Part shown: positions 1 to 42,263 of the stretch, piece by piece
Numbering within the stretch: the stretch's first letter is position 1
How the letters are laid out: each line of letters begins with the position of its first letter
Origin: an uncultured bacterium
GTDB taxonomy: Bacteria > B130-G9
Assembly (NCBI GenBank): GCA_965372715.1
Contig: CBDVDH010000003.1
Location: forward strand, 34,495-98,494
DNA: 64,000 nucleotides
Reading direction: 5' to 3'
Notes under the pieces: model-generated
The model's input: only the letters and a program-made list of their open reading frames with translations
Told to the model about the DNA's origin: nothing
The model's database searches: none
Made by a program: the position numbers and the translations under genes

Positions 1-2
1 CT

Positions 3-716
3 GAGGAGGGTGTTCCGCTTGGGAGCCATGTCGACATTCTGTCGTTCGAGGAGATACGCGAAGTCACCGAAACGGCGGTTAAGATGGGCATTGACAAGGT
101 GCGAATCACCGGCGGCGAGCCACTTGTCCGGCGGGGCATCGTCAGTCTCGTCTCGATGCTCGCAGACATCGATGGGGTCCGCGACCTCTCGATGACGACT
201 AACGGCACATTCTTGAGTGAATTCGCCGCGCCTCTGAAGAGGGCCGGCTTGCATCGACTGAACATAAGCCTCGACGCGCTCGACCCCTCAAGATACCATG
301 AGGTTACCCGTGGGGGTGAGGTCAGCCGGGTTCTGGAAGGCATCCGGGCCGCGGTCGATGCTGGTTTTGAGGGCACGAGGCTCAACTGTGTGGTCAAGGC
401 GTCCTCGTCCGAGCCTGACGCGGTCGCGGTCAGACGATTTGCGGAGGCAAACGGGCTTGAGGCGCGCTTCATACGGCGGATGGATATTGAAAGAGGCGAG
501 TTCTGGGTGGTCGAGGGCGGCGCGGGCGGCGACTGCAAAACCTGCAACCGACTGAGGCTCACGAGCAACGGCTTGGTCAAGCCATGCCTCTTCAGCGACG
601 TAGCTTTTTCGTGTCGGGAATTGGGCCCGGAGGAGGCGCTTAGGTGTGCCGTCCAGGCGAAGCCCGAGTCGGGTTATTCCGGGGCGGAGAACAAGTTCTA
701 CAGCATGGGAGGTTGA
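3..716 (+). CDS. moaA: GTP 3',8-cyclase MoaA (molybdenum cofactor biosynthesis protein A), 5'-truncated by the window edge
   Basis: Frame 3 is open from nt 3. The translation ...LSFEEIREVTETAVKMGIDKVRITGGEPLVRRGIVSLV...TTNGTFL...LNISLDALDP... is a typical MoaA middle/C-terminal region, including the C-terminal GG motif. It ends at TGA 714-716. Confidence 0.9.
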   Translation, partial: EEGVPLGSHVDILSFEEIREVTETAVKMGIDKVRITGGEPLVRRGIVSLVSMLADIDGVRDLSMTTNGTFLSEFAAPLKRAGLHRLNISLDALDPSRYHEVTRGGEVSRVLEGIRAAVDAGFEGTRLNCVVKASSSEPDAVAVRRFAEANGLEARFIRRMDIERGEFWVVEGGAGGDCKTCNRLRLTSNGLVKPCLFSDVAFSCRELGPEEALRCAVQAKPESGYSGAENKFYSMGG

Positions 717-717
717 T

Positions 718-1176
718 ATGGTCACCGGTTTTTCACACGTCGATGAGAAGGGCCGTGTCAGGATGGTTGACATCGGCAAGAAAACACCGCAGCTTCGCGT
801 TGCGAGAGCTTCGGGCCACATTAAACTCGCGGAGGCAACTGTCAAACTGATCGCCGACAACAACATCAAGAAAGGCGACGTGTTGACGGTGGCCGAAATC
901 GCCGGAGTGCAGGCCGCGAAATGCACGCCTCAGCTCATCCCGCTCTGTCATCCGTTACCTATCACGAAGGTCGATGTCAAGGCCACGTTGCACCCGGACG
1001 GGGTCTCGATCGAGAGCGAGGTCTCCTGCATCGCAAGGACAGGCGTCGAAATGGAGGCGCTGACGGCAGTGTCTGTCGCGCTGCTTTCGGTCTATGACAT
1101 GTGCAAGGCCGTCGATAAAAGCATGAAGATCGGTGAGATAGTCCTGCTGGAGAAAGTGAAGACGCCCATAGGTTGA
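718..1176 (+). CDS. moaC: Cyclic pyranopterin monophosphate synthase MoaC
   Basis: MVTGFSHVDEKGRVRMVDIGKK...LTVAEIAGVQAAK.T.QLIPLCHPLP...EMEALTAVSVALLSVYDMCKAV is the MoaC signature. ATG at 718 follows a GGAGG RBS (706-710) immediately after the moaA stop, so the upstream M at 646 overlapping moaA is unlikely to be the start. Confidence 0.9.
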   Translation: MVTGFSHVDEKGRVRMVDIGKKTPQLRVARASGHIKLAEATVKLIADNNIKKGDVLTVAEIAGVQAAKCTPQLIPLCHPLPITKVDVKATLHPDGVSIESEVSCIARTGVEMEALTAVSVALLSVYDMCKAVDKSMKIGEIVLLEKVKTPIG

Positions 1177-1234
1177 GGACGTCCTCAATCTGTGTTATCT
1201 GCGTAATCTGCGGATGAACAAGGGCTGACCAACA

Positions 1235-2194
1235 ATGCGTAAGACCTGTCCAACACACAAAGGGACCGTATTATCGGTCAACATCTCGACCCAAAAAGGC
1301 ACGATAAAGACACCTGTCAAGAGTGCTAATGTCACCGAGCGGGGCATCGAGGGCGATGCGCACGCTGGTCAGTCTCATCGCCAGGTTAGCCTGCTGAGTC
1401 AGGAGAGCATCGACCGCTTCTCGACCCGGGTGGGGCGTGAGTTTGCGCCGGGTGAGTTCGCCGAGAACATCACCACACGGGGCATCGACCTATCACAAGT
1501 TGCGTTACTGGACCAGCTTGGCGTCGGCGAGACTCGTCTTGAGGTGACTCAGATCGGGAAAGCCTGCCACCCGGACGGGTGCGCCATCTTCAAGCAGGTT
1601 GGACAGTGTGTCATGCCCAAGGACGGCATCTTCTGCCGGGTGCTTCACGGTGGTAGGATCGAGCCCGGCGACACCATCAGATATTACCCACGTGGTCTAA
1701 CGTCTCGGGTTATCACTCTCAGTGACCGGGCGAGCCGGGGTGAATACGAGGACAAAAGCGGGCCTCTCGTCACCGTCATTCTAAATAGTTTTTTCGGGCC
1801 CAAACGTTGGCGCCTCGAAATCGAGGGTTACGTGCTTCCCGATGACCCGGACAAGCTTAGAGACCACCTTGAGCGGGCGCGCCAGGACAAGGTCGATGTG
1901 ATCATCACGACCGGCGGGACGGGGCTAGGCCCCCACGACATCACCCCGGACGTTGTTGCGCCTCTCTGCGACAAGCTCATCCCAGGAATCATGGAGCACA
2001 TTCGGCTCAGATACGGACAAGACAAGCCGAATGCACTCTTGAGCCGCTCCATCGCTGGCGTCATGGGGCAGACGCTCATCTACACGCTCCCAGGCAGCGT
2101 CCGCGCCGTCGAGGAATACATGACCGAGATACTCAAGACGCTGGAGCATCTAATCCTGACGGTCCACGGCATCGATCCACATACGCCCGACTAA
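1235..2194 (+). CDS. MOSC-domain / MoaB-MogA (molybdopterin-binding) fusion protein
   Basis: The N-terminal ~150 aa resemble a MOSC beta-barrel (GDAHAG...QVSLLSQES...GEFAENITTRGIDL...G.T.LEVTQIGKACH). The C-terminal ~150 aa carry a MogA/MoaB fold (DVIITTGGTGLGPHDITPDVVAPL...IPGI...SRSIAGVMGQTLIYTLPGSVRAVEEY). It lies in the moaA-moaC context. Confidence 0.7.
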   Translation: MRKTCPTHKGTVLSVNISTQKGTIKTPVKSANVTERGIEGDAHAGQSHRQVSLLSQESIDRFSTRVGREFAPGEFAENITTRGIDLSQVALLDQLGVGETRLEVTQIGKACHPDGCAIFKQVGQCVMPKDGIFCRVLHGGRIEPGDTIRYYPRGLTSRVITLSDRASRGEYEDKSGPLVTVILNSFFGPKRWRLEIEGYVLPDDPDKLRDHLERARQDKVDVIITTGGTGLGPHDITPDVVAPLCDKLIPGIMEHIRLRYGQDKPNALLSRSIAGVMGQTLIYTLPGSVRAVEEYMTEILKTLEHLILTVHGIDPHTPD

Positions 2195-2575
2195 GTCGGG
2201 AAGTCGGACAAGTTCAAAGTTCAAAGTCTCAAGTTGACGTTGCCCTTCATCGCCATTCGTGCTTATTCGTGTGCATTCGTGATTCCCCTCTTCCGCTAAG
2301 AACTGTCCCAAATTGGACAACTAGGGAAACAGCGTATTGCCATATACAGCGCACAACGTCGGTGAACAGTGGGCTAATGCGCTAGATTCACGGTCGTCCG
2401 GATTCAGGGCCGGCTTAGATTGAGGGCCCGTTCTCCGCCTCATCCGACGTCACAGCCATGACACACTGGTGTGGGGCGGGCTTTCAGCCTGCCAGAGTCC
2501 GGGTTTCCCGCGGCGAGCCCCGCCCGCTTGATGGAAACCACGAATGAACACAAATAACCACGAATCAACGGGGCG

Positions 2576-2728
2576 TGTAGGGGCGGCTCAGGGAGGCTGG
2601 GTCATAAGTCGTTGCGGTTATGTAGGGGCGTGGTCTCAGCCCCGCCCTTTCGAATTGATGGTCGCATAAGATGCCTCGTATCCGCAGGGATTCATGTACG
2701 CGGGCGGGTCTGAGACACCGCCCCTACA
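2576..2728. repeat. Composite GC-rich hairpin repeat (family A: GTAGGGGCG / CGCCCCTAC arms plus GGCTGGGTCATAAGTC motif)
   Basis: Two GTAGGGGCG...CGCCCCTAC-type stem-loops. Related copies at 48362-48535, 53576-53680, 56473-56510 and 58401-58439. A partial inverted copy lies at 2835-2875 (GACTTATGACCCAGCCTCCAGGAGCCGCCC). Confidence 0.65.
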
Positions 2729-3522
2729 GGCCGATTCCGACAATCGCGTCGCGAATGAAAACTGCCGCGTTGATCTTGACAATCGGCCGTATTCCCTGTA
2801 TCGTTGTTGTGTGAATAGACAACGAAATCCTCGTCAATTGACTTATGACCCAGCCTCCAGGAGCCGCCCTCCGCAGAATCATTAGGGATTGTGCACGCAA
2901 GAATAACAGTGTCGTAACCCCGGACTTATTGGACAGCCTCTGGAACCCGGGGGCTAATACAACCGTGACCTGATGCATCGCCACTGCTTGCGCCGGGCGA
3001 TGATTTGCCAACCGCCAACTGGCAACTGCTAACTGCTAACTGGTAACCGCCCGATAGACGGCTTCGACTCGCCGAAGGACAGGCGAACTACGGCGGACTA
3101 TGTGGACAAGAAGGGAAATTGGGGACGACCTATGCCCGCCAGAAAGGTTCAATGCGGTCCCTGACGAATCCTGAAACGGCTGATCGCAAGAGGTCCTTAG
3201 CGCACCGCCTCGTTCCAGTTTGTGCCCGCTGTGAACGCGGCTGTAAACACCTTGTCCAGCAGCGATTCAAGGACACGGGCATGCGGTCGAGGCAAAACGG
3301 CTTCGGAAACTTGATGGCCTTTAGATACGTCGCAAAGTCGCAACGCCTCGATACGCGCTGGAACCAATTCAAGGAAGCGGCGTGACAATTACCCACAATC
3401 TGGACACAGACCCAGGCCAAGGGGCCGGGGGCACTGTTTGACAATTGAGCTTACACAGCCGATAGTTGCTGCTCAAACATCAGCATAGTAATTGGCAAAC
3501 TCTGAAAGGATAGGGGGTCGAG

Positions 3523-5703
3523 ATGGAACTCTGGCCGGACAGCATCTTGTCACAGAACCTACGGCTTCGGCGATGGTTCTTGGTCGGGCTGGTTCTGCTG
3601 CCGCTCATCCTGACGTTTCCGGCAATTCGAGCATATTACCAGGGCCAGGCTTGGGCGGACTTCAGACCGCAGACGTGGGCTGAGATAGGGGGTTATGTAA
3701 CCGCTGACTACGAATACTGGGAGCCAGAGTTCTATAGGCCACTGGCCAGGATACTACCAGCGCTGGAATACAAGCTTTTCGGCACGAACCCGGTTGTACC
3801 CAGAGCAGTCTTTTTTGTGGCCTATTCTGCAACCTGTCTTCTAGTGTTTCTCATTGTAGAGGCGTTGTCTGGAAGCTTCCTTACAGCTGCGGCCGCTTCT
3901 CTGATCTTCACGGTTATGCCAAGTCACGTTCTTCCTGTCTTCAAGATGTCGCCGAATATCACGGCGGTTTGGATGTGTTTGGCATTATTGACGTTCTGGC
4001 TGTTGGGACCTGGCTATCACAGGAAGCCATCCTGGCGTAAGGTTGCGATTGCCTTCGCCTCATATTTAGCTGGGATACTCTCATATCCACACGTACTACT
4101 CATCCCCGTCTTACTACTCGCTTATGAGCTACTGTGGGGGGCGCAGGATGCTCGGAGTTCTGTGAAGAGAACCTTACTCAGGCTGCATCTGCCGCTGTGG
4201 CTGATCACTGGGATGTTTTTGGCTCTGAGGTGGCGCCTTTTGAGCCGGCTGAGCGGGGAGGCAGATTGGTACCTGAACGGGGTCAAAACACTTACGATCA
4301 CCAAAGCTGCCGAGACAATGATCTGCCTGGTCTATGGAGGTATTTTCCCACTTCAGCTATCGCCGGCGCTTATTACTGCTAGCCTGCTTTTGCTTTATTT
4401 CGGTTTCCGGTCAAACTGGCGTTTCTCGCTATTCTTGCTGATATGGATAGTGATCGCCCCCTCCTTCAGCTACGCACATGCCGAGTTGTTGTGGCAGCGG
4501 CTCTACCTCTTCACATTTGGGGCTGCGGCTTTTATCAGCTATGTTCTGGTTTTCTGCCTTGGTGGGCTTCTGGACTCGAAACGGCACTCGGAGCGGCTAT
4601 CCCGGATTCTCTCTGTCCTAGATTGGGCGATTGCGATACTGATTGGTTACTGGGTGTTCGAGTTGCTGAGGATGGGTTGGGCGGATATGTTCCTTGGAGA
4701 GAGTCTGAACGGGCGTCTGAGATTCGTGGCTGCCGCCATTGTGGCAATTGCTGTTGTCCTGCGGTCTATTGTCTCCAAGAACGTAACGCCAAGATTCTCC
4801 AAGCAGCCGCTCAGATTCATCTCGGTTGGCCTCGTTGCGGTCATAATTGGTGCTTACGGCGCTGGTTTCGTGAACCAGCTGGGAATGAACGTTGCCCTAT
4901 CAGACGAGATGGAAATGGTCCCCAAAGCAATTGTCAAGGTCCAGCCGCAGGTGCCGGACAACACGCTGATCTTAGTTGTGGTAGGCGATGAGCTCTTGAG
5001 TAAGCTGGGAAGCTCTCTCGGCCAGCTGGATGACTGCCTACGCAGCGAGTATGGCAAGAACGTGAGTTCGTATATCTTTAGCGATTGGGTGAGGATGGCT
5101 CAATACCGAAAGATACCCCAACAGACTACCGTTTTAGCTTTCAGGTTTGACGGTGAGCGAGCTGTCCGGGACCAAGAGCTTGCCGCTCGGATACTTGCCA
5201 GGCAGCGCTCCTATCTTGGGCTCTCCTCGGATGTAATACATGCCCAAGTTCGCGCTCTCCCGGCTGTGGCTGGCGATTTTCGCCTCACGCCCAACGTAGA
5301 TTCGATGTTAATCGACAAGGCAGAGCTACATATCGAGGCCCCAGTGGATGAGGTTGTAGCTCGGGTTGAGTTTGGGTCGGATGGGCTGCTGCTGGGTGTC
5401 ATGGAACTCCAGGCTCACGTGGAGGGGACAAAGGCTACAATCGCTCTGGATCGGCAGCATCAATGGCAGCTGGCTGGTGTCCTAGACTGGGTCAGCATCT
5501 CCGCAGTTCCGCGGGGTAAGCCCGTGACTATTCGCCAGGCCAGCCTGCTACAAACAAGAGGCCTGATTGTTGCTGTTCTACCGCAACATAAGCCGGTTGG
5601 GGCCGTCACATTCCTGCTCGGGAGCTCAACCCAACGCCCCTTTGAAAAGGTAACCACATTCCTTATGGCGGACGAGACTGAACGGTGCATCGCGATCCCA
5701 TGA
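3523..5703 (+). CDS. Polytopic membrane protein, possibly a GT-C-fold glycosyltransferase, with a ~330-aa C-terminal extracytoplasmic domain
   Basis: AGGGGG RBS before ATG 3523. About 11 predicted TM helices in the first ~400 aa. An acidic/aromatic loop (DYEYWEPEFYRP) follows TM1, as in GT-C enzymes (ArnT/PMT-like). It sits next to WecA-like and Glf-like genes. Function is inferred from topology and context only. Confidence 0.45.
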   Translation: MELWPDSILSQNLRLRRWFLVGLVLLPLILTFPAIRAYYQGQAWADFRPQTWAEIGGYVTADYEYWEPEFYRPLARILPALEYKLFGTNPVVPRAVFFVAYSATCLLVFLIVEALSGSFLTAAAASLIFTVMPSHVLPVFKMSPNITAVWMCLALLTFWLLGPGYHRKPSWRKVAIAFASYLAGILSYPHVLLIPVLLLAYELLWGAQDARSSVKRTLLRLHLPLWLITGMFLALRWRLLSRLSGEADWYLNGVKTLTITKAAETMICLVYGGIFPLQLSPALITASLLLLYFGFRSNWRFSLFLLIWIVIAPSFSYAHAELLWQRLYLFTFGAAAFISYVLVFCLGGLLDSKRHSERLSRILSVLDWAIAILIGYWVFELLRMGWADMFLGESLNGRLRFVAAAIVAIAVVLRSIVSKNVTPRFSKQPLRFISVGLVAVIIGAYGAGFVNQLGMNVALSDEMEMVPKAIVKVQPQVPDNTLILVVVGDELLSKLGSSLGQLDDCLRSEYGKNVSSYIFSDWVRMAQYRKIPQQTTVLAFRFDGERAVRDQELAARILARQRSYLGLSSDVIHAQVRALPAVAGDFRLTPNVDSMLIDKAELHIEAPVDEVVARVEFGSDGLLLGVMELQAHVEGTKATIALDRQHQWQLAGVLDWVSISAVPRGKPVTIRQASLLQTRGLIVAVLPQHKPVGAVTFLLGSSTQRPFEKVTTFLMADETERCIAIP

Positions 5704-5872
5704 TTCAGCACCGATTCTCACGAGCGTTATCACCGTCATGATTTGGCCAAGATTCATGTGGGTTTTTGTGGTAGTTCGAGGTTCGAATTGGATGGAGATT
5801 GTCTTGTCATTGAGCCAGGGGACGGCGACTGCCAACCGCCAACTGCCAACTTGCAGCCGCTCGATAAGACGG

Positions 5873-6994
5873 CTATTGCTTCAGAGCTTCGTGGGAATCG
5901 CTGTCAGTTGAGCCGCGAGCCACCTTCGCCGCCAGGGACGCAACGTGTTTCTCAAGGTATGCGAGCGTCTTCAGCGCTAGGACGAGGCCCATTGCCAGGA
6001 TAATCAGGATAAGGAAGGTGTATTTGAACGGGATAAGGACCGTGATGAAGGCGATGACGCCGAGATATGCGGAGATGAAATAGATCAGTTTGACCGCTTG
6101 GCGCTGCGACAGCCCGAGAGCGAGCAGCCTGTGGTGCAGATGCTCCCGGTCGCCCTCAAACGGGTGCGTTCCTCGAATGAGCCTCCTCAAGAAGGCGAGC
6201 ACAGTGTCCATCAGGGGGACCGCCATCGAGGCAATTGGGACCAAAAGGGCGACCGCGACTGTGCTTTTTGAGGCGCCGAGAAGCGACATTGCGGCGAATA
6301 TGAACCCGAGGCACATGCTTCCGGTGTCGCCCATGAAGATGCTTGCGGGAGAGAAATTGTACTTGAGGAACCCCAGGACGGCGCCGGCGACCGCGAGAGA
6401 CAGGAGGCCGATCTCGTAATCACCCCGATAGACCGCCACCGACATCATCGTGAGTGAGGCGATGAAGACGATGCCTGCTGCGAGTCCGTCGAGGCCATCT
6501 ATGAGGTTTATTGAGTTGGTTAGGCCCACGACCCAGAGCACGGTCAGCATCACGCCAACTATGGCCGGAACGGCAATTGAGCCGGTTTCCGAAAGCGGCG
6601 ACGTGAATTTCTCGATATTGAAGCCATAGACAAGGAGCACGATTGCCGCAGCTATCTGCCCCGCAAGCTTGACAGTTGGCCGCGCGCCCTTGGTGTCGTC
6701 GTAGATGCCCACTCCCATCAGGATGAGGCATCCGAGGAAGATACCGGTCAGCTTGCTGCCCAGCAATTCTCCCAGGTCAGGGTGCAGGGACGTGCCCAGA
6801 AGGACCGCGGCCACAAACGCGACGATAATCGCAATGCCGCCGAGCGATGGTATCGGATGGGGGTGAATCTTCCGACGACCCGGCACGTCCATAGCGCCGA
6901 CGCGCCTCGCAAACGCTCTGACGACCGGGGTGAGAATCAAAGAAACCACCGTGCCGGCTGTGATAACGATGACGTATGTAAGCGGCAGGCTCAT
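5873..6994 (-). CDS. Polyprenyl-phosphate N-acetylhexosamine-1-phosphate transferase (WecA/TagO/MraY family, GT4 superfamily)
   Basis: Multi-TM protein with the MraY/WecA motifs NSINLIDGLDGLA and DDxxG (GIYDDTKG) and a HHRLL-type cytoplasmic loop. Confidence 0.8.
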   Translation of the reverse strand: MSLPLTYVIVITAGTVVSLILTPVVRAFARRVGAMDVPGRRKIHPHPIPSLGGIAIIVAFVAAVLLGTSLHPDLGELLGSKLTGIFLGCLILMGVGIYDDTKGARPTVKLAGQIAAAIVLLVYGFNIEKFTSPLSETGSIAVPAIVGVMLTVLWVVGLTNSINLIDGLDGLAAGIVFIASLTMMSVAVYRGDYEIGLLSLAVAGAVLGFLKYNFSPASIFMGDTGSMCLGFIFAAMSLLGASKSTVAVALLVPIASMAVPLMDTVLAFLRRLIRGTHPFEGDREHLHHRLLALGLSQRQAVKLIYFISAYLGVIAFITVLIPFKYTFLILIILAMGLVLALKTLAYLEKHVASLAAKVARGSTDSDSHEALKQ

Positions 6995-7003
6995 TCAATA
7001 GTT

Positions 7004-7156
7004 CCAAGTTTCAAGTTTCAAGTTCAAGGTCGAAGGCCCAAAGTCAGTTGTCAGTTGGCCGTATTCATCCTTCATGCTTCATCCCTCTTCTGTGTCTCTG
7101 TGTCTCTGTGGTTCACTGCAATCCGCAATCGGCAATCCGCAATCGGCAATCCGCAG
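7004..7156. repeat. Cluster of short triple-tandem motifs in the wecA-like/glf-like intergenic region
   Basis: CAAGTTTCAAGTTTCAAGTTCAAGG (7004-7029). CTGTGTCTCTGTGTCTCTGTGG (7090-7111). GCAATCCGCAATCGGCAATCCGCAATCGGCAATCCGCAG (7118-7156). Confidence 0.7.
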
Positions 7157-7158
7157 TT

Positions 7159-8511
7159 TCATGACAGTTTCGTCCAGACTCTTTCTCTCTCATCCAGAAG
7201 GAGCCTGTCAATGGCCTCTTTGCCCTGCATGAAGGAGTGGTCGGTGTTGCCGACCTCGTATCGCCAGCCGCCAAATCTGCCCCGCGAGAGAATATCATGC
7301 GCCTCAAAGAACTCGAGCATCAGCTTTAGGTTCTTGTCTCGGTCCAGCGTCGGGACGGGGTAGGAGCGCTGGACCTTGATGACCTTCGTGCTTACAACCG
7401 CGTCGAAGTCCTCCGGCGAGATAAGTCCCGCTGCGACCAGGCCGTCCAGCGTGCTTTTCACCGCGTCGGCCGCGACCCTATCGACTTCGTTCGGCTGGCA
7501 AGAGACCTCGCAAACGAGCGAGTAATGGCCCGCCTCGGGCACGTTGTTGGGCGAGTAGTTGGAGAAATAGGTAACGCGGTAGAACGGGCAGTTGCTCTCC
7601 GGGAAATACATCCAGCACTTGTCGCTGGGGCACGGCTTTTCAAAGCCCAGGCCGATCATCACGCCAGCCGTAGTTCCAAGCCCGGAGGCCGCGTCACGCA
7701 CATCATCCGGCGCGCCTCGCGTGATTGAGGCCAGTTCGTCGAGCGGGATGCTGCTCAGAAGCGCGTCGTAGGTCGTTCGCTCGCCATTTTCAAACTGGAT
7801 GGTCTTGGCTCTAGGATCGAGGGAAACGATCCGGCGCCTCAGGTGGAGATGGTCCTCGATGTGACGTCGGTAGCCCTCAAACATCGCCCCAGTGCCGCCG
7901 TTGAGCGGGAACCTGAACTTGCTGTTGGGGCCCCAGCCGACGTCGTCCCGCTCGAGGATTACGTTGCTCAGCACCCTCTCAAAATCGATGACGCTGACTC
8001 GGTCGGCAATCCAATCCTTCGAAATCCTTTCGAGCGGGAACTTCCAGACCATGTCGTTATACGGAACCATAAAGTGCTTGGAGATGCCCTTCCCGAAGAC
8101 CGCGTCAATCCACTCTCGAAAGTTGCCAACGGGCCGTTCATTCCTCGACGCCTCCAGCAAGCCGACGAGGCATTCGAGAACCACGTCGCTTCTAAGATAG
8201 CGGATGTTATTCTGAAATGGATACGGGACCCATCTGCCGTGTATCCTCACGAAACTCCGCCGCTCGTGCGCGAGGTAATCGTCGCCCAGAACGCCGTCGA
8301 TATACCTATCGAAGTAGTCGTAGTGCGAAAACAAGACGTGGCCGCCGATGTCCCACACGAAGCCCTTATCATCCGAAAAGGACGCCGCAAGCCCACCGAC
8401 GTAGTCGTTCTGCTCGTATATGTCCCAGTCCTTGTAGCCCAATTCGTTCAGCCGATACGCAGCGCCAATGCCCGTCGGCCCCGCGCCCAGGATTACAATT
8501 CTCTTTTTCAA
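7159..8511 (-). CDS. FAD/NAD(P)-binding flavoenzyme, UDP-galactopyranose mutase (Glf)-like
   Basis: N-terminal Rossmann GxGxxG (ILGAGPTGIGAAY). The region IYEQNDYVGGLAAS...WDIGGHVLFSHYDYFDRYIDG parallels Glf (D.R.HIGGN...GPHIFHT). The C-terminal GGWRYEVGNTDHSF parallels Glf GRLGTYRYLDMD. At 450 aa it is longer than canonical Glf. Confidence 0.6.
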   Translation of the reverse strand: MKKRIVILGAGPTGIGAAYRLNELGYKDWDIYEQNDYVGGLAASFSDDKGFVWDIGGHVLFSHYDYFDRYIDGVLGDDYLAHERRSFVRIHGRWVPYPFQNNIRYLRSDVVLECLVGLLEASRNERPVGNFREWIDAVFGKGISKHFMVPYNDMVWKFPLERISKDWIADRVSVIDFERVLSNVILERDDVGWGPNSKFRFPLNGGTGAMFEGYRRHIEDHLHLRRRIVSLDPRAKTIQFENGERTTYDALLSSIPLDELASITRGAPDDVRDAASGLGTTAGVMIGLGFEKPCPSDKCWMYFPESNCPFYRVTYFSNYSPNNVPEAGHYSLVCEVSCQPNEVDRVAADAVKSTLDGLVAAGLISPEDFDAVVSTKVIKVQRSYPVPTLDRDKNLKLMLEFFEAHDILSRGRFGGWRYEVGNTDHSFMQGKEAIDRLLLDERERVWTKLS

Positions 8512-8714
8512 TCAGTATCGCCTTCTGTTGCTGCCAGGCAGCCGCCTGACCTGGGTTGTGCGGCAGGCCGCGGAAACAACTCGCGCATCCTGGCCATTAT
8601 CTTAATCTTCTCGGCAAAAGGCAGCTGCCGAAGCCGCGCTCTCACCTTCTCTTTTTCCTCATTGAGCACTTGAAAGAACTGTTCTGAGTCTGTGATGTAA
8701 AGGAGTTTTTTCAT
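8508..8714 (-). CDS. Small hypothetical protein (68 aa), translationally coupled to the downstream Glf-like gene
   Basis: The ORF stop overlaps the Glf-like start (ATGA overlap at 8508-8511). No recognisable domain. Confidence 0.25.
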   Translation of the reverse strand: MKKLLYITDSEQFFQVLNEEKEKVRARLRQLPFAEKIKIMARMRELFPRPAAQPRSGGCLAATEGDTD

Positions 8715-8763
8715 CTAGATTCCTCCGCTCGATGCGAGATGCGAGTCTGTGGCCAGCCACCTT

Positions 8764-9138
8764 CTAATCATCCCCTGTCGGGCAGACCGTAGTCGCCTCT
8801 ACCATCAGAACCACGGTGCGCTCCGGAGCACGTGTCCGATGAACCACGCCTTTAGGGACTACCGTTGCCTGGCACGGCAACAACTCCATCGTCCTGTCCT
8901 CCAAATCAACCAGTAAACGGCCCTTGACAACGTAAAAGAGCTCATCCTCCCTCTCGTGCCGATGCCAGTGGAACTCTCCCTTTAGCACGCCGAGGCGCAC
9001 CACACACTCGTTGACTTGACAGAGCGTCTGATTGAACCAATCGTGCCTGCAGGTGCGCTCCAGCTCGGCCACATCAACTCGCTCCAAGGGCCCGAACTTG
9101 ACGTCGCCTCTGATCAGGTATTCCGTTTTCCTCTCCAC
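8764..9138 (-). CDS. Cupin-domain protein
   Basis: Two-histidine cupin motifs (GEFHWHRHEREDELFYVVKG ... PKGVVHRT), typical of the small RmlC-like cupin fold. Confidence 0.6.
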   Translation of the reverse strand: MERKTEYLIRGDVKFGPLERVDVAELERTCRHDWFNQTLCQVNECVVRLGVLKGEFHWHRHEREDELFYVVKGRLLVDLEDRTMELLPCQATVVPKGVVHRTRAPERTVVLMVEATTVCPTGDD

Positions 9139-39376: not shown

Positions 39377-40525
39377 TTGGCTGCCCTGCTTAGCTATTCT
39401 CCGGCCAAAACTTACCTAAGCTCGAATCTAATTCAACTGAGGCGGACAGTGCAAGCCTGGATTAACGAGAACCTACTTTGGACACAGTTCCTCGTTTGCG
39501 GCGCGGCAGTTGTTCTGGCCGGCATGAGACTCTCCCGGCTTGGCCACATAATAGGCGAAAAACTGAAGATAGGCAGCACCTGGATCGGGCTCGTGTTGCT
39601 GGCTGCCGTTACCTCCATGCCAGAGATGATCACGGGCTGCACGGCGGGCGCCATCGGGGCGCCAGACATAGCCATCGGCAATCTGTTCGGCAGCAACCTC
39701 TTCAACCTCGCGATACTGGGCATTCTCGGGCTAATGATGCCTCGGCTGGCGAAATGGAATGAGGAGGGACACAGGCACTTACTTTCGAGCGGCTTTAATC
39801 TATTCATAATCTCCGTTGCGCTTCTTGCGATCGTTATTCACAGAGTTACTCTCTCCGTGGGCGCGCCTCATAACCAGGCCAAAGTGCAATGGCCGATAGG
39901 AGTGGGCAGCGTCGTGCTGCTCGCTATTTATCTGCTCTCGATGGTCCTGATCTTCGTCCACGAAAGGAGCAACAGACCACGGGATGCTGAGGCGCTCGCC
40001 TACAAAGATGAGAAGCTCCCTGGCGTCTGCATCAAGTTCACGGTCTGCGCCGCGATAATCGTCGGCGCCGGCTGGCGAATGGTTGTCCTGGGCGACATCC
40101 TCGCGGAAATCCCCATCAACATCTTGGGGACGCGCCTCGTCCTGGGCCAGACCGTAATCGGCACGTTATTCCTTGCCGTTGCGACCTCGTTGCCCGAATT
40201 CACGGTTTGCTTCGCAGCAATCAAGATGCGCGCTGTGAATATGGCTATCGGCAACGTCTTCGGCAGCAACATCTTCAACATCGCGACCGTTTTCTTAGCC
40301 GACGTATTCTTCACAAAAGGCCCGATTCTGGCCCACATCAGCGGCATTCATCTTATCACAGGACTGATTGTCATCTTGATGAGCGTGCTCTTTATCTTGG
40401 GAAGCGCATACCGCCGCCTGTTCGTCGGGTTCAGGCAGATTCCTATCTCGATCGCCATCGTGGCCTTATGGCTTCTGGGCTGGCTCCTTATATTCATGTT
40501 CAGCGGCCAGGCCCCGCAGCCGTAG
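39377..40525 (+). CDS. Ca2+/cation antiporter (CaCA family, YrbG-like)
   Basis: Two alpha-repeat signatures (GNLFGSNLFNL and GNVFGSNIFNI) in a ~10-TM protein. The true start may be a downstream M. Confidence 0.75.
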   Translation: MAALLSYSPAKTYLSSNLIQLRRTVQAWINENLLWTQFLVCGAAVVLAGMRLSRLGHIIGEKLKIGSTWIGLVLLAAVTSMPEMITGCTAGAIGAPDIAIGNLFGSNLFNLAILGILGLMMPRLAKWNEEGHRHLLSSGFNLFIISVALLAIVIHRVTLSVGAPHNQAKVQWPIGVGSVVLLAIYLLSMVLIFVHERSNRPRDAEALAYKDEKLPGVCIKFTVCAAIIVGAGWRMVVLGDILAEIPINILGTRLVLGQTVIGTLFLAVATSLPEFTVCFAAIKMRAVNMAIGNVFGSNIFNIATVFLADVFFTKGPILAHISGIHLITGLIVILMSVLFILGSAYRRLFVGFRQIPISIAIVALWLLGWLLIFMFSGQAPQP

Positions 40526-40574: not shown

Positions 40575-40748
40575 TCATCTCGACCAGGGATCAGCCACAC
40601 CGAGGTCCTTGCATATCTTGAGCACCAGCTTGTTGAGTAGTTCCGTGTGCCGAGGAATTGTCGAGGTCATCCGGTTGGCCGGGTTCCAATAGACGGAGTG
40701 CTTCTTGCCCTCGCGAAGCAGCAGGCAGCCCTGCCGACCGAGATGCAA
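40575..40748 (-). CDS. hicA: HicA-like mRNA interferase toxin (TTG start, or N-terminus frameshifted)
   Basis: The frame read immediately after the hicB stop gives ...GCLLLREGKKHSVYWNPANRMTSTIPRHTELLNKLVLKICKDLGV, a good HicA (YcfA) signature (GSHxxxxxP...T.P.H.EL....L..I.KQ.G). There is no ATG in frame. The nearest start is TTG at 40746-40748. The ATG-initiated ORF in the track (40591..40785) is in the wrong frame for this similarity. Confidence 0.4.
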   Translation of the reverse strand: MHLGRQGCLLLREGKKHSVYWNPANRMTSTIPRHTELLNKLVLKICKDLGVADPWSR

Positions 40749-40781
40749 GAGTCCAGGGAGCTCTCGGCAGAGCGCCTCGCT

Positions 40782-41003
40782 TCATCCGGAGTGAACTAAG
40801 AGCTCTTCCCGAATCACATTGCGACCCTCAGCCTCGCGACGCGCCAATTCCCGATTGGCCTCAATGACGAGCTGCACTGCCTCCTTGAGATTCTCTCGCG
40901 CCTCATCGAGCGTTCGCGCCTGTGTATTCGCCCCGGGCAGTTCCTCAACGTATCCAACCCACCACTCGCCTTCTTGCTCGAAGACCGCCGTGAAATGCTC
41001 CAT
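40782..41003 (-). CDS. hicB: HicB-like antitoxin (UPF0150/RNase H-like fold)
   Basis: 73 aa. The HicB N-terminal pattern (FTAVFEQEGEWWVGYVEELPGANTQARTLDEARENLKEAVQLVIE) is present. The stop abuts the hicA-like frame. Confidence 0.55.
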   Translation of the reverse strand: MEHFTAVFEQEGEWWVGYVEELPGANTQARTLDEARENLKEAVQLVIEANRELARREAEGRNVIREELLVHSG

Positions 41004-41217
41004 TCCTTTCTCCCATTCAGATGCCTTAAGGAATTGCCTCGACCCAGGCCCGCGCTCAAGGATACATCAACATGGCGGAACCTGCAAAAACGCCGACATC
41101 AGAGCATCTTTCGACAGTGGCCACCACCTAATGGCCCGGAACTACCGGCGAGCCCCCCGGCTAGCATTGTATTAACCCCGTTTCCAATCGGGCGAGCCTG
41201 GGAGGCTGACGCGCACC

Positions 41218-42018
41218 CTACTCAGACTTGGGTCCAATATCGCTCAGATCGACACGCAACTCCTCGCGCGATGCGCCGCACCACCTGCACAGTAGTTCAC
41301 CGCCCGCCTCCTCAAATCGGGCCAGCACTTGGTTATGATAAGTGGCCAACCAATTGTATTTCGCCAGATTGCGGCTGTCCTCTTTGTGCTTCTTGCGGTT
41401 CCTCATGATGAGCTCTCTGTGAACCACTAGGCTTTCGCGCACAAGGTCAGGGTCCATTCCAAACTCCCAGAGCTGGCCAATGTTTCCAACTAGATAGTCA
41501 ACGAAGAACTGACCATCGTCGTCTCGCCATATGTACTTCATATCCCCTAATACAACGTTGTCATGAAGCCTCTGATGCACAGCTCCATCAATCAGCACGC
41601 GCGGATATACGGCGACTTTAGACTCTAGGTGGTAGGCCCTGTTCAATGCCGGACCAAAGATCATTTTATCCTCCACGAATATTTCTCCGACCGTGATCCC
41701 TCCTCGAACAATGACACCTTCTTGAATCAAGCTGCGTTGAATATGCATGATTGCATTGAGCTCAAGAATGACTTTTAGATTGACCTCATACCTGTCGTCT
41801 TCGTCGGAGATTCTTGAAGTCCTTACTATCGAGTCCGAGAAATTGATGTAACGCATTTCAAATACCTTCGGTGGTTCGTCGGGAATGGTCGCCTCGTCAC
41901 AGACCTGTATCAAGAATCCTATTATCCTCTTGATCTCATCAGGCGTTCGGGTCTCAACTATTTCCTTAAATCCCAGAATGTCGATGAATGTTACGATAGC
42001 TTTGATGTATGCTGCCAT
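41218..42018 (-). CDS. Stand-alone class III nucleotidyl cyclase-like domain protein (266 aa)
   Basis: Motif 1 is VTFIDILGF (compare AC/GC FTDIVGFT). Motif 2 is RGGITVGEIFVEDKMIFGPALNRAYHLESKVAVYPRVLIDGAVH (compare R.GIH.G.VV.G..G......FGDTVNTASRMES.G..G.I.VS). No sensor or effector domain is fused. Confidence 0.5.
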   Translation of the reverse strand: MAAYIKAIVTFIDILGFKEIVETRTPDEIKRIIGFLIQVCDEATIPDEPPKVFEMRYINFSDSIVRTSRISDEDDRYEVNLKVILELNAIMHIQRSLIQEGVIVRGGITVGEIFVEDKMIFGPALNRAYHLESKVAVYPRVLIDGAVHQRLHDNVVLGDMKYIWRDDDGQFFVDYLVGNIGQLWEFGMDPDLVRESLVVHRELIMRNRKKHKEDSRNLAKYNWLATYHNQVLARFEEAGGELLCRWCGASREELRVDLSDIGPKSE

Positions 42019-42263
42019 TCAGATTCCCTCCATTTCCTTGTTCGACCATATCAGGGTCGTTCTGTTCTTCTGCGGAACCGAATCCGCGGGTTGACAGTCG
42101 CGGCTCTTGCCCGTGATTCATTCTATCTCCGCTCCCGCATTGTTTGCCAGCCCGTTTCCGCAATGTTCTTCCCAGCCTGCACGTCGGGGATTGTCTCGGA
42201 AACCTCTCATGCCCCGTTGTTTGACAAAGGCGGGCGGATTCACATAGGCTTTCAGCACATCAA

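Follow-up and report, generated by a model that had tools for sequence, protein, structure and literature searches.

A toxin with the fold of a class III nucleotidyl cyclase is already known from a single validated toxin-antitoxin (TA) member, PanT of a Burkholderia phage, which is the only validated cyclase-fold toxin and whose chemistry is unsolved. Gene products gp9 and gp8 of prophage phi52237 constitute the type II TA system PanA-PanT: PanT is toxic in E. coli and arrests growth, and PanA binds and neutralizes it (Kurata et al. 2022, PMC8832971). PanT inhibits transcription more than translation and translation more than replication; it leaves ATP unchanged, lowers GTP slightly and provokes a RelA-dependent accumulation of ppGpp that is not causal (PMC8832971). 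In the same study HHpred suggested a cyclase, and the product was not identified; a follow-up on the mechanism was not found in the literature searched. In this work we analyse a gene for a 266-residue protein in a stretch of 64,000 nucleotides from an uncultured bacterium (lineage B130-G9; assembly GCA_965372715.1, contig CBDVDH010000003.1, positions 34,495 to 98,494), termed the window. On balance, and with a confidence slightly above even, the gene is best placed in the PanT-type family of cyclase-fold toxins, as a stand-alone member without antitoxin, and regarded as a mobile candidate for growth arrest or defence. It comprises the following parts:

41218-42018, minus strand: PanT-like cyclase-fold gene, a complete open reading frame (ORF; 266 codons plus stop, ATG start) from the ORF list
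41494-42018, minus strand: residues 1-175, the class III cyclase homology domain (beta1 to the beta-hairpin 163-173)
41221-41493, minus strand: residues 176-266, the family-specific C-terminal helical domain, with the motif KYxWLAxYHN at 41332-41361

The connection to PanT emerged from a tblastn search of phage genomes, which yielded matches in six P2-like Burkholderia prophages. The match in phi52237 is gp8 (YP_293707.1), encoded in the cargo that separates the integrase from portal gene Q and starting 3 bp after gp9, the DUF4065 protein PanA. Alignment of the family to PanT by hhalign (99.8%, E=8e-28, 233 columns) pairs family positions 5-250 with PanT 45-296, and therefore the homology takes in the C-terminal helices as well as the cyclase domain. 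BLASTP against PanT finds 33% identity over the cyclase domain (E=2e-16), and for another family member (P0104) the alignment with PanT takes up 92% of that member's length. PanT and the window protein thus share full-length homology, and PanT has in common with the family the invariant D, D, RGG, FGP, E and PR residues, the lack of the canonical Asn/Arg and the location on mobile DNA. In contrast, identity is only about 33%, and PanT carries a 44-residue N-terminal extension and a cognate PanA, both of which the window gene lacks. The PHROG database also keeps the two apart, assigning the window protein to phrog_23933 (function unknown, E=9e-31), while PanT defines phrog_21097.

PanA itself is absent from the window locus by blastp and tblastn, and a homolog was found in only one of 85 family loci. 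This locus (Paraburkholderia sediminicola NZ_JAQQEK010000024.1) encodes a PanA homolog at 5644-6231 on the minus strand, 58% identical to PanA of phi52237, directly followed by a PanT-type paralog at 4657-5634. A stand-alone family member lies divergently at 7001-7780, about 770 bp from the PanA/PanT-type pair, such that both forms of the family occur within one island (4657-7780). In phi52237 another TA pair adjoins panAT: gp6/gp7 (8060-8666 of the phage locus), annotated as a PF04365 RNase toxin with its antitoxin, are situated directly before portal gene Q. An unrelated TA pair hence stands beside the cyclase-fold gene in the phage as it does in the window.

The cyclase assignment is a structural one, since all sequence profiles remain below threshold. 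In the structural comparison the homology domain adopts the class III cyclase fold, and its top matches are housekeeping adenylyl cyclases, with PycC structurally further away. Pfam Guanylate_cyc (PF00211) scores 16.4 bits versus a gathering score of 21.9 (E=0.0069, profile positions 9-156 of 183) and matches only 5 of 66 family members at E<=0.1; the PADLOC PycC model covers residues 102-166 only (E=0.025, 12 bits), a partial and non-significant match, and a scan of NCBIfam returned nothing. Searching the Protein Data Bank by phmmer retrieved class III cyclases only, at E=0.003-0.1, and a profile of 66 family sequences brought no gain over the single sequence (E=0.033). A profile check against Guanylate_cyc and PycC, proposed when the gene was initially read from sequence, consequently did not by itself identify a cyclase. 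Both hallmark segments named in that sequence-only reading are present, FIDILGF at residues 11-17 and RGGITVGEI...FGPALNRAYHLESK at residues 105-134. Its description of a minimal protein holds insofar as no sensor and no transmembrane (TM) segment were found in the 266 residues (Kyte-Doolittle 19-residue means peak at 1.4); however, the protein comprises more than a cyclase domain, as a conserved helical domain that belongs to the family occupies residues ~176-254, with the last ~12 residues of the protein disordered.

These features set the family apart from its structural relatives. Compared to the class III cyclases CyaB (3r5g), Rv1900c (1ybt) and Rv1625c (7yzi/1yk9) of the PF00211 type, it adds the C-terminal helical domain and has no sensor. 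The PycC cytidylate and uridylate cyclases (7r65, 8jsz, 8jsf) resemble it in being minimal cyclase-fold proteins that lack a sensor and occur in defence contexts. Other proteins with a related palm fold, i.e., the 6yii pseudo-cyclase, GGDEF proteins, mCpol/OptS (9mnr) and GTP cyclohydrolase III (2qv6), occur in other domain contexts or with partner genes; compared to these, the window protein lacks a GGDEF-type motif, and sequence similarity is undetectable.

The active site was assessed by counting residue conservation in the 66-member family alignment and mapping counterparts through a HMMER alignment with Rv1625c (1yk9). Ten residues are invariant in all 66 sequences (D13, L15, F60, D62, R105, G106, G122, E132, P139 and R140), three of which correspond to functional positions:

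41980-41982, minus strand: D13, the Asp of the F-x-D-I-x-G-F motif, which aligns directly with the canonical metal Asp
41833-41835, minus strand: D62, at the beta2-beta3 hairpin turn of the model
41704-41706, minus strand: R105, the Arg of the R-x-G strand

In class III enzymes the second metal-binding Asp is located at the beta2-beta3 hairpin turn, and from its place in the model D62 would be this residue. The Arg of the R-x-G strand, here R105, contacts the triphosphate in class III cyclases. The metal Asp pair, which the earlier reading had singled out for inspection, is thus retained throughout the family, with the equivalence of D62 taken from the model.

The residues that perform cyclization fared differently. 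In Rv1625c, K296 and D365 choose the base, and N372 and R376 stabilize the transition state. Position 126, the counterpart of the transition-state Asn, is Ile or Val in 51 of 66 sequences (Ile 26, Val 25) and Asn in 12; position 130, the counterpart of the transition-state Arg, is acidic in 47 (Glu 29, Asp 18) and Arg or His in five each. The window protein has the canonical N126 but H130. The base-choice pair, likewise earmarked in the initial reading, is not kept: position 58, corresponding to K296, is hydrophobic (I/T/V), and at position 119 the six closest sequences differ from one another. A D(D/E)DG turn replaces the hairpin turn that bears the gamma-phosphate Lys at position 168 (D168 in 60 of 66), and the C-terminal helix contributes the near-invariant residues K220, W223, Y227 and N229. 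The comparison establishes a complete class III cyclase homology domain that possesses the metal Asp pair and the triphosphate Arg and lacks the cyclization and base-choice residues. With scaffold and metal site kept and the cyclization machinery gone, this looks like a remodelled active site and not like simple decay. In PanT, according to its sequence and the hhalign alignment, Val and Thr take the place of the canonical Asn and Arg, and its toxicity therefore does not depend on classical cyclase chemistry.

Given this pattern, the protein would act as a metal-dependent, two-metal enzyme that uses nucleoside triphosphates (NTPs) for nucleotidyl transfer in a non-canonical reaction, either releasing a toxic nucleotide product or nucleotidylating a macromolecule. 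As for PanT, transcription would be shut down first and translation thereafter, without ATP being drained. The gene may thereby serve as a single-gene growth-arrest module, for abortive-infection-type defence or addiction. Such a module is the likeliest role because the gene travels alone on mobile, defence-rich DNA without a conserved antitoxin or effector. The gene would be kept silent by tight expression, or by some trigger or inhibitor.

The family is large and has no Pfam or NCBIfam model, and the protein is named in no source. In addition to 808 word-indexed homologs, an exhaustive profile search retrieved 4,292 clusters (50% identity) at E<=1e-30 and 15,941 at E<=1e-3, some of the latter perhaps being distant true cyclases. 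The family signal thus greatly exceeds what chance would give. Almost all of the best 150 matches measure 240-300 residues, and no fused domains were found in longer homologs. The top match, a protein of 475 residues (P0121), consists of two tandem whole-family domains, the second spanning 238-474; this tandem may form a pseudo-dimer within one chain and is of interest for the question of whether the fold still has to dimerize. The distribution is patchy across many phyla, plasmids, islands and prophages, with the gene present on 95 plasmids and also as prophage cargo. PanT emerges as a small, antitoxin-paired offshoot of this far larger family, which almost always occurs alone.

Genomic contexts were compared for eight loci from exact-protein look-ups and 80 genome loci from many phyla, retrieved with a tighter family alignment as query. 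Conserved partners were sought in 85 of these loci by ORF calling (at least 60 residues, a crude procedure) and all-versus-all BLAST clustering. Neither an effector nor an antitoxin is conserved among the 85 loci, and neighbour orientation is near random. The commonest neighbour clusters are P4-type integrases (8 loci), serine recombinases (7 loci), DUF499 ATPases (4), HipA (4) and IS110 transposases (3). The 119 non-redundant immediate neighbours fall into 76 Pfam families with at most two members each, and a few match PADLOC defence models, namely DinG, WYL, a TIR-pAgo (prokaryotic Argonaute) partner, NucC and PDC candidates. Individual members reside in defence or mobile contexts, e.g., with TIR, DUF499, RES and integrase genes, or with SIR2 and prophage genes.

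Two contexts deserve separate mention. On a marine metagenome contig (ERZ908097; locus positions 1-8789) a dense defence island encodes the methylase and S subunit of a type I restriction-modification system, a long pAgo (Piwi), Abi_2, a UvrD helicase and DUF4238, and a family member lies on the same strand 22 bp downstream of this island. In a number of plasmids from rhizobia, the first gene after the record origin (~886-1700) is the family gene, as in Rhizobium tropici pRtrCIAT899a (754-1716), and the copies adjoin a serine recombinase and a site-specific integrase, an arrangement that suggests a conserved plasmid cargo site.

Several observations weigh against a stand-alone toxin. Toxicity is on record for a single relative, which is about 33% identical and comes with an antitoxin of its own; without such a partner, a gene that is toxic constitutively would be hard to maintain, and no cis-inhibitory domain was found that sets the stand-alone proteins apart from PanT. 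None of the family members has a known enzymatic activity. In the HMMER alignments D62 lies two residues off the second metal Asp, such that the equivalence leans on the hairpin position in the model. The association with defence islands consists of individual contexts without a background comparison, and the crude neighbour calls, limited to ORFs of at least 60 residues, could have let very small or RNA antitoxins escape.

A second possibility, less probable though to be taken seriously, goes further. The stand-alone proteins would then be a very large family of single-gene anti-phage (abortive-infection) enzymes, in which the Asn, Arg and Lys normally supplied by the partner subunit have given way to other residues and the helix carrying K220, W223, Y227 and N229 completes the site in cis. 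Such enzymes may synthesize a novel toxic nucleotide or modify the transcription machinery by nucleotidylation, and a phage cue would switch them on directly, in place of the loss of an antitoxin.

It is rather unlikely that the family consists of catalytically dead pseudo-cyclases, which bind NTP or metal as non-toxic regulators or sensors, similar to the ATP-binding domain 6yii. A degenerate pseudo-cyclase had been among the initial suggestions. It fits poorly with the invariance of the metal Asp pair and the phosphate Arg, and the new conserved residues (E132, P139-R140, K220, W223 and N229) are better explained by remodelling than by decay. Moreover, PanT shows the same residue pattern and is strongly toxic.

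The adjacent hicBA genes could provide a replacement for PanA, with HicB or hicBA serving to neutralize or regulate the cyclase-fold toxin in a three-gene module. The genes are on the same strand, no terminator is predicted in the 214-bp spacer, hicB seems intact while hicA appears degenerate, and antitoxin swapping is documented in PanA-type networks (PMC8832971, PMC10440598). Nonetheless, this module is improbable. A tblastn search detected no homolog of hicA or hicB in any of the other ~100 fetched family loci, and the contig of the 65%-identical homolog lacks them as well; the 214-bp gap and the gene's own Shine-Dalgarno sequence suggest separate units, and GC content differs (0.58 in hicBA versus 0.48). 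The idea of a system formed with the neighbouring small ORFs therefore finds no support in these loci. A functional link is unlikely, and we regard hicBA as co-resident cargo of the same small insert and not as a conserved partner.

Equally low, or marginally lower, stands the proposal that the gene is an orphan signal generator of Pycsar or CBASS-like defence, which produces a cyclic nucleotide upon infection for an effector encoded elsewhere. This role had been advanced on the grounds that the protein is a minimal, stand-alone cyclase, and the accompanying remark that no cognate effector is adjacent proved accurate: no effector activated by cyclic nucleoside monophosphates was found beside the gene in the window. 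The homolog neighbourhoods do not supply one either, as TIR, TM, SAVED or CARF-type neighbours do not recur in the 85 loci or in Pfam and PADLOC scans of the 119 neighbours. The similarity to PycC is weak in profile and structure compared to housekeeping cyclases, Ile/Val and Glu/Asp replace the transition-state Asn/Arg in ~75% of members, and the characterized relative PanT is itself the toxin. An ordinary housekeeping cAMP or cGMP cyclase of the host is most improbable of all, in spite of the top structural matches and the Asn126 that the window copy happens to carry, in view of the sub-gathering Pfam score, the absence of a sensor or regulatory domain, a His at the Arg130 position that is acidic in the family, the patchy occurrence on plasmids, islands and prophages of many phyla, and the atypical GC content.

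What is new, then, is a stand-alone, very widespread and unannotated variant with a defined pattern of active-site remodelling; no stand-alone defence gene of the class III fold is described in DefensePredictor, the domain-centric screen or other literature searched. Should the stand-alone proteins prove active, they would constitute a novel class of growth-arrest or defence effectors that consist of one protein each, and would add a novel reaction to those of the cyclase scaffold. Should they prove inactive, one would have to explain how so large a family of pseudo-enzymes persists on mobile DNA. The conservation pattern, i.e., metal site kept, cyclization residues lost and new invariants gained, translates into concrete mutants and assays.

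The stand-alone toxin gene favoured here is embedded in a stretch with the following further features:

42026-42031, minus strand: Shine-Dalgarno sequence GGAGGG, 7 nt before the ATG, read from the sequence
42019-42263, no strand: upstream intergenic region of 245 bp, common to the gene and the divergent nnr/YjeF, the presumed promoter region
41004-41217, no strand: non-coding spacer of 214 bp between the gene and hicB
40575-41003, minus strand: hicB and a seemingly degenerate hicA, from Pfam and frame analysis

The location next to hicAB with non-coding gaps on both sides is thus as initially described, with 214 bp downstream and 245 bp upstream. The gene has a GC content of 0.48 and a third-position value (GC3) of 0.57, compared to 0.53-0.62 and 0.64-0.76 in its neighbours, and therefore looks horizontally acquired. 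The surrounding window genes are housekeeping genes (Rex, a Wzy/TPR protein, a Na/Ca exchanger, KsgA and an HDOD protein). The gene may have arrived together with hicBA in a compositionally atypical insert of ~1.7 kb between nnr and the exchanger gene. An identical protein is encoded on the public contig ERZ23499000 scaffold_14.

The flanks were searched for RNA or repeat antitoxins and att sites, and they yielded no Rfam match and no tandem or meaningful direct repeats; likewise, neither repeats nor a small conserved ORF nor an Rfam element was found in the 245-bp upstream region. A scan for promoters and terminators was judged uninformative for this locus: on the minus strand no consensus sigma-70 site was seen upstream of the ATG, a promoter-like site falls within the 3' end of the gene (41381-41353), and no terminator-like site was seen in the 214-bp spacer. 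Read-through from the gene into hicBA is possible, because the spacer has no minus-strand terminator.

HicB (40782-41003, 73 residues) matches UPF0150 (E=3e-5) and HicB_lk (E=9e-4), both below the Pfam cut-off. The HicA_toxin match at 40575-40748 is also sub-threshold (E=3.5e-5) and covers profile positions 8-58 only. The ATG that overlaps the hicB stop codon (ATGA) opens a different frame, a 64-residue ORF (40575-40785, minus strand); the HicA domain is in the frame of hicB and can be reached only from an internal TTG, which gives 57 residues without the first ~7 profile positions. The gene caller of the public record did not call hicA, which looks degenerate; the cause would be a frameshift of 1 nt, whether genuine or introduced by the assembly, or else an N-terminal truncation of the toxin.

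Finally, the Na/Ca exchanger gene contains a 46-nt direct repeat (39668-39713 and 40241-40286, 85% identical), which most likely reflects the internal duplication that gave this exchanger family its two alpha-repeat halves.
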